Positions 5,618-9,767 of a DNA stretch of 64,000 bases are shown here, one piece after another. A program made the translations under genes and the position numbers. The DNA is taken from the IMG/VR virus record IMGVR_UViG_3300005613_000004; one strand, 5' to 3'. This DNA is from a virus. The notes below the pieces were generated by a model that was not told the DNA's origin, did not search any database, and saw only the letters and a list, made by a program, of their open reading frames with translations. Every line of letters begins with the position of its first letter. Position 1 is the stretch's first letter.

Positions 5618-6517
5618 ATGAATAAAACATTTTATTTTATGGCAGGTCTCCCACGATCAGGGAGCACAATGCTTTCATCAATTTTGAATCAGAATCCAAG
5701 ATTTTACTCAGGTCCATCAAGTCCAGTATTGGGACTTATGTTTGCTATAGAGCATAATCTTAGGGGGAATGAATTATATTCTGGATATCCAAAACCAAAT
5801 CAAGCTTCGGAACTCATTGGTAGTGTTCCATATCATTTTTATAGTGATGTGAATAAACCTGTCGTATTTGATAAAAATCGTGCATGGACCGCAAGAGTTT
5901 CTTATATTGAAGGATACATTGGACAGCAGGCAAAGATTCTTGTTCCAGTTCGTAGAGTGGATGAGATTCTGACCTCAATTCTCACAATGGTTCGTCGCAA
6001 TTCTTTTCAAGAAGGTCAGGAAAGAGTTAATTTTGTTGATGAACAACTAATTAAAACTAATACACCTATTAATGACTATAATCGGTGTATGTATCTTCTT
6101 AATGATGGTGGTATTATTTACGAATCATTAAATGCCATTTTAGAGGGATTTAAACAAAATGTGCGTGACAAAATGCACTTTGTGGACTATAATGAATTGG
6201 TTGATGATCCTAAGAAAACAATGGAAAATATCTATAATTTCTTAGGTGAAGATTATTATGAACATAATTTTGATACACTTTCCAATGTTAATAGGGAAAA
6301 TGATCTGAGCACTTATGGATTGAATGATATGCATGAGGTTCGTCCCCAAGTCAAAAAAACTTCTCCACCTCCATCGTCAGTTCTCCCTCCGGAAATTATC
6401 AACCTCTATGAACAAAATAAAAACAGACTCGAATTTTGGACAACTCCTAATATTGTTAAGTTTAATCCAAAAGTAAAAGCACCTCTCACAAAATCCAATT
6501 CAATTATTTTAAAGTGA
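5618..6517 (+). CDS. Sulfotransferase family protein
   Basis: N-terminal PAPS-binding loop 'GLPRSGSTML', 'DKNRAW', and 'VDYNELVDDPKKTMENIYNFLG', typical of Sulfotransfer_3-like proteins. Confidence 0.85.
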   Translation: MNKTFYFMAGLPRSGSTMLSSILNQNPRFYSGPSSPVLGLMFAIEHNLRGNELYSGYPKPNQASELIGSVPYHFYSDVNKPVVFDKNRAWTARVSYIEGYIGQQAKILVPVRRVDEILTSILTMVRRNSFQEGQERVNFVDEQLIKTNTPINDYNRCMYLLNDGGIIYESLNAILEGFKQNVRDKMHFVDYNELVDDPKKTMENIYNFLGEDYYEHNFDTLSNVNRENDLSTYGLNDMHEVRPQVKKTSPPPSSVLPPEIINLYEQNKNRLEFWTTPNIVKFNPKVKAPLTKSNSIILK

Positions 6518-7413
6518 TGACAAAAACTAAGTATTGTATATTTCATGTTCAGGGTGGATTTGGAAAGCATATTGCAGCAACAGCAGTAGCTAAGTGCATC
6601 AAAAATAATTATCCAAGTAGACAACTCATTGTTGTTGGTGTATGGACTGAAATTTTTCAGAATCTTCCATATATTGATAGAGTATATCAGTTAGGTAATA
6701 CTAGTTACTTTTATCAAACTTATGTAAATAATCAAGATTCTTTGCTTTTTGCAAATGAACCTTATTTTACTACAGATCATATCCATAAAAAATTGCCTTT
6801 AGTTCAAACTTGGTGCAAAATGTATGGACTTGAATATCGTGGCGAAATGCCTGAAATCAAGTTCAATCCCTTGCAAAAGAAAATTTCAAAGGATGTTTGG
6901 ACTGGTCGTGCAAATAATAAACCAGTCATGCTCATTCATACCAATGGTGGGATGTATAATGAGCAAAGACCTTATCTATGGGCAAGAGATATGCCTGTAG
7001 CACTTGCACAAAGATTGGCAGATCATTATTCGAAAGATTATCACATCTATCAAGTTAAAAAAGCATCTAGTGAGGCATTGAAAGGTGTAGAAGTTATTCA
7101 AGATCCTATGAGTAATATGGAACTAGTTAGTGCTGTGCTTAATAGTGATAAGAGAATTTTGATTGATAGTTGCCTACAACATGCTGCAGCAGCACTTAAA
7201 CTTCCTTCAGTGGTACTATGGAATGGAACTAGTCCAAAGGTCTTTGGATGGGATATGCACACTAATATACAAGCAGAAAAACCTGCTAATTTTAAACTTC
7301 CAAATAGTTACCTGTTTGACTTTGACTTTACGGGTGTGGAAGCAGAATATCCTTATGTTGATGAAGATGAAGAAATCTTCGACTTTGATAAAATCGTAGA
7401 AGCAGTTGGATAA
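6514..7413 (+). CDS. Glycosyltransferase, GT9/heptosyltransferase-like (GT-B fold)
   Basis: 'GGFGKHIAATAVAKCIK' resembles the GT9 GxGD helix. 'IDSCLQHAAAALKLPSVVLW' resembles DSGxxHxAAAxxxPxVxLF. ATGA overlap with the upstream gene. Confidence 0.7.
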   Translation: MMTKTKYCIFHVQGGFGKHIAATAVAKCIKNNYPSRQLIVVGVWTEIFQNLPYIDRVYQLGNTSYFYQTYVNNQDSLLFANEPYFTTDHIHKKLPLVQTWCKMYGLEYRGEMPEIKFNPLQKKISKDVWTGRANNKPVMLIHTNGGMYNEQRPYLWARDMPVALAQRLADHYSKDYHIYQVKKASSEALKGVEVIQDPMSNMELVSAVLNSDKRILIDSCLQHAAAALKLPSVVLWNGTSPKVFGWDMHTNIQAEKPANFKLPNSYLFDFDFTGVEAEYPYVDEDEEIFDFDKIVEAVG

Positions 7414-8970: not shown

Positions 8971-8999
8971 TTGACTATATAGAGTATAGGGTCTATAAT
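8971..8999 (+). promoter_or_regulatory. Sigma70-type promoter driving the riboswitch module
   Basis: TTGACT (8971-8976), 17 bp, TATAAT (8994-8999). Predicted +1 near 9005-9006, just before the aptamer. Confidence 0.85.
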
Positions 9000-9005
9000 A
9001 GACTC

Positions 9006-9263
9006 ATCGTTCATCACCTTCGGGTGACGCAAGTAAGTCGCGGAACGGAGCGTTCATCTTATGATTGAAATACTATTATTGGCACATATGTATCAGAAAC
9101 CTCAAATGACTTGTCAGCAAGTCATCGAGGTGGCAGAAACTGTGATGGAGTCTCCATATATGACTCCCAAAGATAAGAAAAATTTTTTCTTTAACTTATT
9201 TGGTAATCACATGAATATGGATTGTATCAAAAAATCATAGGACGCAAACGACTGAAGGAACGG
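9006..9263 (+). ncRNA. Glutamine-I (glnA-motif) riboswitch-like RNA, double/nested architecture
   Basis: P1 CGUUC/GAACG occurs twice. P2 UCACC-UUCG-GGUGA, junction C-GCA, E-loop AGUA(9032-35)/GAA(9254-56), P3 AGUCG/CGACU. This matches the known glnA aptamer pattern CGUU..P2..GxA-AGUA..GAA-G..AACG. Confidence 0.8.
9061..9240 (+). CDS. 59-aa ORF nested inside the riboswitch P2 loop
   Basis: Hand translation: MIEILLLAHMYQKPQMTCQQVIEVAETVMESPYMTPKDKKNFFFNLFGNHMNMDCIKKS*. It is below the ORF-track size cutoff. Confidence 0.65.
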   Translation: MIEILLLAHMYQKPQMTCQQVIEVAETVMESPYMTPKDKKNFFFNLFGNHMNMDCIKKS

Positions 9264-9322
9264 AACTCGGATCACCCTTAAGGGGTTAAAGGAGAAAAAT
9301 CCATTCTTTTAGGAGACCTACA

Positions 9323-9487
9323 ATGAACACACTTAATCTCATCAAAAAAAAGATTGAAAGATCAGCACGTCTGCATGATGCACAAATTCTTCACACTACA
9401 TATCGTGGTGTAAAGTATGAGTGTAAGCAAGAAGATAACGAATTGCATGGCACTTTCTGTTATCGTGGTCAAAATTATACGAAATAG
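9323..9487 (+). CDS. DUF4278-like / GS-inactivating-factor-like YRG peptide (54 aa)
   Basis: AGGAG RBS at 9311-15. MNTLNLIKKKIERSARLHDAQILHTTYRGVKYECKQEDNELHGTFCYRGQNYTK has two YRGxxY motifs. Confidence 0.75.
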   Translation: MNTLNLIKKKIERSARLHDAQILHTTYRGVKYECKQEDNELHGTFCYRGQNYTK

Positions 9488-9522: not shown

Positions 9523-9550
9523 AGGGGGGAATTGATATCCCTCCTTTTTT
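9523..9550 (+). terminator. Rho-independent terminator
   Basis: AGGGGGGA-ATTGATA-TCCCTCCT hairpin followed by a T run. Confidence 0.8.
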
Positions 9551-9581
9551 ATGCTAAAATGTAATCAAATAATAGAGTATT

Positions 9582-9767
9582 ATGGAGAAAGAAAGACTTA
9601 AACTGATCGTTAGAAATCTTGAATTGCTTGTGGATTCACTGAAAGCGGAAGTATATTCTGATGTGGATGCATATAAAACGTCTGCAGACAATTCTAAACT
9701 TCCGGGGATGATTCCAACACTCGATTATGATGAAATCTTTGAGGATGATGATGGATACCCAGACTAA
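9582..9767 (+). CDS. Hypothetical protein
   Basis: 61-aa ORF starting an operon. Confidence 0.7.
   Translation: MEKERLKLIVRNLELLVDSLKAEVYSDVDAYKTSADNSKLPGMIPTLDYDEIFEDDDGYPD

Follow-up and report, generated by a model that had tools for sequence, protein, structure and literature searches.

A cyanophage glutamine riboswitch probably built from two aptamer cores, one nested inside the other

We analyzed a 64,000-nucleotide stretch of DNA from IMG/VR virus record IMGVR_UViG_3300005613_000004 (hereafter, the window), whose source is a T4-like cyanomyovirus, and focused on an RNA element at positions 9006-9263. The element is probably a glutamine riboswitch made of two aptamer cores, one of which lies inside the other. 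It contains two full sets of the glutamine-aptamer core motifs (CGUUC, P2, CGCAA and GGAACGG) and a single P3 helix and E-loop that are split between the two halves. Covariation among homologues shows the putative outer aptamer to be a canonical glutamine-I three-way junction (P1, P2a, an AGUA/GAA E-loop, P3 and the pair C9030:G9263), and the putative inner aptamer to be circularly permuted, sitting in place of the P3 loop on the far end of the shared P3.

Two sets of core motifs and a single P3

The region was matched by 380 phage records, nearly all from Synechococcus or Prochlorococcus phages. A TTGACT/TATAAT promoter is found 5' of CGUUC in most homologues as well as in the window, where the transcript would start at about 9006. 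The parts of the element and its promoter are listed below.

8971-8999, + strand: sigma-70-type promoter (TTGACT at 8971-76, 17-nt spacer, TATAAT at 8994-99; 11 of 12 positions match)
9008-9012, + strand: 5' strand of the outer P1, CGUUC, with its partner at 9258-62; invariant in 109 of 109 compact homologues
9014-9027, + strand: P2a hairpin of 5 bp with a UUCG loop (9014-18 paired with 9023-27)
9028-9035, + strand: outer J2/3, CGCAAGUA, in which C9030 is the outer linchpin base that pairs with G9263 and AGUA is the 5' half of the E-loop
9036-9040, + strand: 5' strand of the shared P3, AGUCG, which pairs with 9249-53 and is followed by CG
9043-9055, + strand: inner P1 hairpin, GAACG (9043-47), loop GAG and CGUUC (9051-55), in which G9048 pairs with C9245
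9057-9066, + strand: 5' strand of P2b, UCUUAUGAUU, which pairs with 9233-42 and includes the start codon (9061-63) of an open reading frame (ORF)
9061-9240, + strand: 59-codon ORF inside P2b, which accounts for the insert of about 166 nt in that hairpin; AUG in the 5' strand of P2b, UAG in its 3' strand
9233-9242, + strand: 3' strand of P2b, AAUCAUAGGA, which includes the UAG stop codon of that ORF (9238-40)
9243-9248, + strand: inner J2/3, CGCAA (9243-47) plus A, with C9245 as the inner linchpin base
9249-9253, + strand: 3' strand of the shared P3, CGACU, covarying with 9036-40
9254-9263, + strand: 3' half of the E-loop, GAA(G), 3' strand of the outer P1, GAACG (9258-62), and the outer linchpin base G9263

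The first half of the element (unit 1) ends at G9048, and the second (unit 2) starts with the CGUUC at 9051, leaving a linker of AG. No local P3 was found in either half of the sequence at 9006-9263. A first-pass annotation, made from the letters of the window, had placed correctly all the sequence elements that it named, which did not include the ORF inside P2b, and its promoter with a start just 5' of CGUUC matches the one listed above. It had also stated that neither half has a P3 of its own and that AGUCG and CGACU are shared between them, which holds for the window sequence and is borne out by P3 covariation.

Homologues retain the layout and the P3 strands covary

Homologues were collected by four degenerate-pattern scans of IMG/VR, which together with S-CAM9, syn9, Sf-FS3 and the window gave 399 parsable elements. 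At least 120 loci were found in each of three of the virome scans and up to 120 in the fourth, and all counts given here are among the matches listed. Two of the scans were aimed at the linchpin positions, one of them fixing G at the J2/3 position of unit 1 and the other a non-G base after the GAACG of unit 1, with the other three positions left free in each case. In addition, 109 distinct compact elements were aligned with MAFFT (alignment A1), and base pairs were counted with a pair-counting tool. A scan of genome contigs yielded mostly chance matches among those listed, and two real ones, one of which comes from a Prochlorococcus single-cell assembly (a 7-kb contig). The two P2 hairpins were either short or long in the homologues, with a small ORF inside each long one, as follows.

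P2a short, P2b long (the type of the window): 156 of 398 homologues
P2a short, P2b short: 145 of 398 homologues
P2a long, P2b long: 60 of 398 homologues
P2a long, P2b short: 37 of 398 homologues

The motifs CGUUCA, CG(C/G)AA and GGAACG are invariant across the 109 compact homologues, and every conserved position of the glutamine aptamer is present in both cores. In the same set, all four counted pairs of P2a vary on both sides and are 100% paired, and the base of P2b covaries and is likewise 100% paired. The two P3 strands, located 3' of AGUA and 5' of (G/A)AAG, are complementary in every class found among the 399 loci, with more than 25 strand combinations and G-U intermediates among them; no disruptive class was present in these loci. 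The classes include the following.

AGUCG/CGACU: 96-97 loci
AGUCA/UGACU: fully compensated
AAUCG/CGAUU: fully compensated
8-position helices: AGCCGACU/AGCCGACU, AGCCGACA/UGCCGACU, AGCCGACG/CGCCGACU, GGACGACG/CGCCGCCC and others
8-bp type: AGCCGACN/NGCCGACU

In the compact elements, the proximal pair of P3 is AU in 77, GC in 24, CG in 3 and GU in 3, and the distal pair is GC in 40, UA in 33 and AU in 11, with none unpaired; the end pairs thus occur in three to four pair types each. The whole structure outscored all 500 column shuffles and all slid controls of the 109-element alignment. With about 400 homologues retaining the layout, and with both P3 and the linchpins (see below) covarying, the element is far beyond chance. 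The AGUCG/CGACU covariation that the first-pass annotation had proposed as a check is therefore present, in compensated classes across homologues. Its fixed geometry, with the two pockets facing each other across one helix, is unlikely, as P3 ranges from 5 to 9 bp among homologues; the linkers are all constant.

The long form of P3 (AGCCGACN/NGCCGACU) has a strand that is nearly self-complementary and contains two symmetric C·A/A·C mismatches, at A1 columns 50/112 (94 of 109) and 53/109 (70 of 84), which could be protonated wobbles, a tertiary contact or a dimerization site.

Among the loci, one (L083, positions 6480-6830) is the sole three-unit element. The 5' P3 strand of its first unit, AGCCGACU, is without a downstream partner. 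We considered this first unit as a stand-alone unit with a mini-hairpin and rejected that interpretation, as AGCCGACU is the usual 8-nt P3 strand. The locus is probably a recombinant between two P3 types, and for this reason is uninformative on topology.

A minimum free energy fold of 9004-9270 recovered the inner hairpin, P2b and part of the outer P1, and mispaired P2a. This fold was set aside as evidence because the E-loop and the triplex are beyond its model.

Linchpin pairs favor nesting over a side-by-side tandem

No homologue has a variant of either CGUUC or of either GAACG, so the P1 strands cannot separate a nested from a side-by-side arrangement, and the linchpin positions were used instead. 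The linchpin is a capping pair between the third base of J2/3 (CGx) and the base just 3' of GAACG, corresponding to C19:G41 in the glutamine-II structure (PMC6698751). It is G-C in the Rfam glutamine-I consensus. We denote the J2/3 bases of units 1 and 2 as x1 and x2, and the bases after the first and second GAACG as y1 and y2. The inner linchpin column is split across gap columns in alignment A1, and the inner pair was therefore counted by script over the 399 loci. The states found, in the order x1, y1, x2, y2, are given below with the arrangement that they allow.

C,G,C,G: 217 of 399 loci, uninformative
G,G,C,C: 102 of 399 loci, nested only
C,C,G,G: 51 of 399 loci, nested only
C,A,U,G: 8 of 399 loci, nested only
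G,C,G,C: 2 of 399 loci, uninformative
single-mismatch variants: 19 of 399 loci, mixed

The pair x1-y2 expected from nesting is Watson-Crick in all 399 loci, and x2-y1 in 380 of 399, with 2 further G-U pairs and with C-G, G-C and U-A states all represented. Of the pairs expected from a side-by-side arrangement, x1-y1 is Watson-Crick in only 221 of the 399 loci and x2-y2 in only 224, and these loci are essentially the uninformative ones. Consistent with this, the outer linchpin (column 41/125) is paired in 109 of 109 aligned elements (68 CG, 41 GC), and the side-by-side counterpart (column 102/125) is 45% paired. The swapped linchpin states are combined with 16 and 6 distinct P3 types, among them the AGUCG/CGACU of the window. 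In the solved structures (for glutamine-I that of Ren et al. 2015, as summarized in PMC6698751), J2/3 occupies the groove of the P1 that it caps and is tethered through P2 to the CGUUC strand. Given this contact, the cross-connected linchpins would most simply make the first CGUUC and the second GAACG the outer P1, and the first GAACG and the second CGUUC the inner P1 hairpin. Nesting is thus supported by two independent covariation signals, from P3 and from the linchpins.

The alternative is an ordinary tandem, in which 9008-12/9043-47 and 9051-55/9258-62 form the two P1 helices and AGUCG/CGACU serves as a bridge between the aptamers; such a fold would be doubly pseudoknotted, with unit 1 resembling glutamine-II. 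By sequence alone these local pairings are as possible as the nested ones since the P1 strands are identical, and in the course of transcription unit 1 can close its own P1 first. The glutamine-II model also scores 24.4 bits at 9005-9054, and some homologues (for example L243) are split by Rfam into two adjacent matches. Against the tandem, at least one side-by-side linchpin is mismatched in 161 loci, and both are in 153, yet both nested pairs are Watson-Crick in all 161; the low pairing of the side-by-side column in the alignment argues in the same direction. Moreover, a P3 of variable length with fixed linkers would fit naturally as a connector between two junctions, and would be awkward to accommodate if each P1 spanned or ran alongside it. 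We regard the tandem fold as quite improbable.

Several points weigh against the nested arrangement. The homologues were picked by sequence patterns and are phylogenetically related, so that their counts do not represent independent events. As the P1 strands are free of variation, the P1 partners are deduced from the linchpins and strand connectivity. The window itself has the state C,G,C,G and is uninformative when taken alone. The inner aptamer is without an E-loop, and its linchpin G is in a 3-nt loop, which may strain the pocket.

The nested arrangement agrees with what the first-pass annotation had read from the window. Its outer canonical aptamer is supported by linchpin covariation and by the Rfam alignment of compact homologues, and its inner permuted aptamer, with the GAACG-GAG-CGUUC hairpin as P1, by the covariation of the swapped linchpins. 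The linchpin of C and G, which it took as a compensated version of the known G-C pair, indeed covaries among homologues.

The inner core likely binds glutamine

The inner junction runs in the order P1 hairpin, A, P2b, CGCAA-A, P3, CG and back to P1, which is the canonical order, with A and CG replacing the GUA and GAA of the E-loop. Its P1 is closed by a loop of 3-6 nt, the first base of which is the capping partner. The ligand contacts in both glutamine-I and glutamine-II are the C1:G pair of P1, the CG of J2/3 and the C of GAACG (PMC6698751), and all of these positions are invariant in the inner core of the 109 compact homologues. Because the contact positions are invariant, and because glutamine-II also binds its ligand without an E-loop, the inner core likely binds glutamine too, and L-glutamine would then occupy both pockets.

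It is also conceivable, and in our view unlikely, that the fold is nested and only the outer aptamer senses glutamine, with the inner junction acting as a scaffold that holds P3 and gates the embedded ORF, much like the "ghost" aptamer in singlet glycine riboswitches. The missing E-loop, the shorter inner J2/3 (CGCAA-A) and the linchpin base inside a 3-nt hairpin loop would all suit a scaffold, as would the lack of cooperativity of published tandem constructs, as PMC5066625 reports it from Ames & Breaker 2011. The ligand-contacting positions, however, are as invariant in the inner core as described above, the inner linchpin covaries through C-G, G-C and U-A, and glutamine-II shows that binding does not depend on an E-loop. 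Cooperative binding, which the first-pass annotation had raised as a possibility, is not supported.

Rfam scores and comparison with known riboswitches

At Rfam gathering thresholds, the window as a whole matched only three tRNAs and no glutamine riboswitch. With a relaxed threshold, the glutamine-I model (RF01739) matched 9006-9051 with 30.1 bits (threshold 35) in an alignment that lacks P3; the first-pass annotation had named an Rfam search as its check, and it yielded this sub-threshold match and none above threshold. The low score is due to P2b enclosing the 59-codon ORF. Compact homologues with the P3 type of the window scored above 35 (46.8 bits for L282, 41.0 for L010 and 40.3 for L051), and RF01739 aligned the compact element of 86-97 nt as one aptamer, from the first CGUUC to the last GAACG, with a 48-nt insert in P3. 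The deletion of 9067-9232 proposed in the same annotation thus has natural equivalents in the homologues with two short hairpins (145 of 398), of which the P3-matched ones pass RF01739. Identity with glutamine-II (RF01704) was rejected, as the relaxed match at 9005-9054 reached 24.4 bits against 33 and the local CGC/GCG pairing is lost when the linker changes.

The outer aptamer corresponds to glutamine-I (RF01739; for example the leader of Synechocystis gifB, PMC6212724) in its P1, P2, J2/3, E-loop, P3 and long-range capping pair. The features in common are a P1-closed three-way junction with P2, an E-loop formed by J2/3 and GAAG, the capping pair and a DUF4278-type gene downstream; the gene partner is the same DUF4278/IF17-like one, and the element is probably also an ON switch. 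The differences are that the P3 loop is here replaced by a circularly permuted second core, that the capping pair is C-G and not the G-C of glutamine-I, and that one hairpin encloses a gene, with the window falling below the Rfam threshold. Glutamine-II (the Downstream-peptide motif, RF01704; PMC6698751) has the same ligand-pocket nucleotides and a C:G capping pair, is without an E-loop like the inner core here, and precedes DUF4278 genes in marine picocyanobacteria (PMC6698751). It is, however, an H-type pseudoknot with a helix directly 3' of GGAACGG, and no such covarying local helix was found in the element.

The tandem glycine riboswitch likewise has two homologous amino-acid aptamers, one expression platform and structural coupling. 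Its aptamers are side-by-side neighbors in tertiary contact, whereas here one core is inside the other and the two have a Watson-Crick helix in common. The published tandem glutamine aptamers are the same RNAs as the element described here. Ocean-metagenome sequences of this type, for example with the linker GGAACGGAUCGUUCA, are present in the 2010 glnA alignment (Weinberg 2010, PMC2864571), where the two cores are a few nucleotides apart, have one expression platform between them and are aligned as separate side-by-side matches with the P3 columns unpaired (PMC2864571). According to PMC5066625 and PMC7161355, as they cite Ames & Breaker 2011, glutamine aptamers occur as two or three units a few nucleotides apart with one platform, and the account of that work in Ruff 2016 (PMC5066625) has the tandem aptamers as non-cooperative in vitro and without a known benefit. 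A 2017 survey listed only two glutamine riboswitches in cyanophage genomes (PMC5473149).

In the accessible literature, which does not extend to Ames & Breaker 2011 itself, a shared P3, nesting, permutation or genes inside P2 were not described. The first-pass annotation had known of no description of the topology; the tandem arrangement had in fact already been published, and it is the nested topology that appears to be new. The shared P3 and the swapped linchpins support nesting, unlike the published side-by-side description. If the two cores are nested with a common helix, they could not fold independently, and the in vitro results on tandem constructs would need rereading, which offers a concrete and testable model for the puzzle of their missing benefit. 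The nested layout would be common in cyanophages and concealed from standard RNA-family scans, as nesting and the genes inside the hairpins put the element below the threshold of the standard model. For RNA design in general, it would also be of interest that a circularly permuted aptamer occurs in nature and that aptamer helices can enclose genes.

Reading frames enclosed by the P2 hairpins

No Pfam or PHROG family was found for the 59-codon ORF at 9061-9240. Of the 217 homologues with a long P2b, 212 retain an intact ORF, 49-64 codons in length, whose start is within the 5' strand of that helix. In 201 of the 217, its stop codon is a U(G/A)A that takes one base from the end of P3 and two from the beginning of the E-loop, which could be the reason for the G or A at this E-loop position; eight, the window among them, use a UAG within the 3' strand of P2b instead. 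Many of the embedded proteins therefore have ...WDAND as their C-terminus, which the aptamer core itself encodes. The linker AG, which completes GGAG at 9047-50 ten bases 5' of the AUG, occurs only in homologues that carry an ORF, and GGAG likely serves that ORF as its Shine-Dalgarno. Metagenome contigs of the same waters have a loop of 7-11 nt in place of 9059-9240, with the exchange exactly at the stem.

The ORFs in the P2b of other homologues belong to several families, for example gp197 of syn9 in phrog_504, and the hairpin ORFs of syn9 are the annotated gp196 and gp197. P2a of syn9 (L002, 600-800, gp196) and of Sf-FS3 (L003, 590-800) encloses a 66-aa protein of phrog_6471, with the P2 pairing kept by compensatory change (UCCUAUG/CAUAGGA versus UCUCAUG/UGUGAGA). 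A near-identical 22-nt hairpin, UUCGCUAUUCGCAAAUAGCGAA, serves as inner or outer P2 in many divergent elements (for example L244, 5916-6016, and L321, 5538-5638), which suggests a module that is conserved or can be exchanged.

Folding of the inner aptamer would bury both the GGAG (9047-50) and the AUG (9061-63) of the 59-codon ORF, and translation of this ORF would in turn melt the sensor, so that sensing and translation may compete. The element might even mainly control the embedded small ORFs, as a structured leader or coupling device in which the likeness to a glutamine sensor is vestigial. The start and stop codons inside aptamer helices, and the stop at the border of P3 and the E-loop in nearly all homologues with a long P2b, would fit such a role. 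We consider it very improbable: the 145 homologues without an ORF in either hairpin keep both cores intact, and compact forms are above the Rfam threshold.

The downstream gene and its likely regulation

The gene that the riboswitch would regulate, and the other features downstream of the element, are listed below.

9306-9315, + strand: candidate expression platform, CUUUUAGGAG, with the downstream Shine-Dalgarno AGGAG (9311-15) and a stretch complementary to CUGAAGG
9323-9487, + strand: putative regulated gene for a 54-aa DUF4278/IF17-like protein with two YRG motifs, 60 nt downstream of the element
9523-9551, + strand: intrinsic terminator closing the transcription unit

The protein encoded at 9323-9487 matched PF14105 with an E value of 1.4e-4 (22.6 bits, cut-off 25.3) and phrog_545 with an E value of 7e-30, and is likely a homologue of the glutamine-synthetase-inactivating factor. 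DUF4278/IF17-like genes are known targets of both glutamine riboswitch classes, which are ON switches (PMC6212724, PMC6698751). Taken together, the homologues suggest that many cyanomyoviruses read host glutamine, and with it nitrogen status, early in infection to control an IF17-like gene.

The sequence CU(G/A)AAG(G), comprising the end of the 3' P3 strand and half of the E-loop, has its complement, CUU(C/U)AG(G), at the Shine-Dalgarno site (9252-58 versus 9306-12 in the window). AAAG E-loops face CUUUAG or CUUUGG in 77 of 77 cases, and C at that position was found only with GAAG E-loops. The pairing of 9252-58 with 9306-12 is proposed here with reserve, because the sequence preceding the Shine-Dalgarno differs in about 100 homologues and the platform folds no better than shuffled sequence (z -0.6), both of which also count against the overall scheme. 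Folding of the outer aptamer would take up CUGAAGG (9252-58), which would otherwise pair near the downstream Shine-Dalgarno (9306-15), so that high glutamine would turn the IF17-like gene ON.

These steps could be combined into a dual-output device, in which glutamine binds at both ends of P3, the IF17-like gene is turned ON and the gene in the inner hairpin OFF, translation of the latter melts the sensor, and coupling through P3 sharpens the response in vivo though isolated constructs look non-cooperative. We hold this scheme as possible and rather doubtful. If true, it would be a riboswitch architecture and logic undescribed for any class.

Minor observations

The platform is shorter in most homologues, at about 20 nt. 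In the window, S-CAM9, syn9 and Sf-FS3, an extra element separates the aptamer from the Shine-Dalgarno in the region corresponding to 9264-9310, with GGAUC, a hairpin, (G)AGAAGGUUAA and UCCAUUC in this order. A second promoter-like site at 9532-9560 has TTGATA and a TG-extended TAAAAT, 17 nt apart; it overlaps the tail of the terminator and precedes the next small ORF, at 9582. The three tRNA genes of the window form a cluster at 32722-32795, 32835-32906 and 32911-32995. In related virome contigs, further RNAs known from cyanophages, namely manA RNA, PhotoRC-II RNA and a group I intron, were found near the element (L367, 1566-1770; L137, 1640-1839; L282, 2684-2774 and 3805-4007; L244, 11262-11350).

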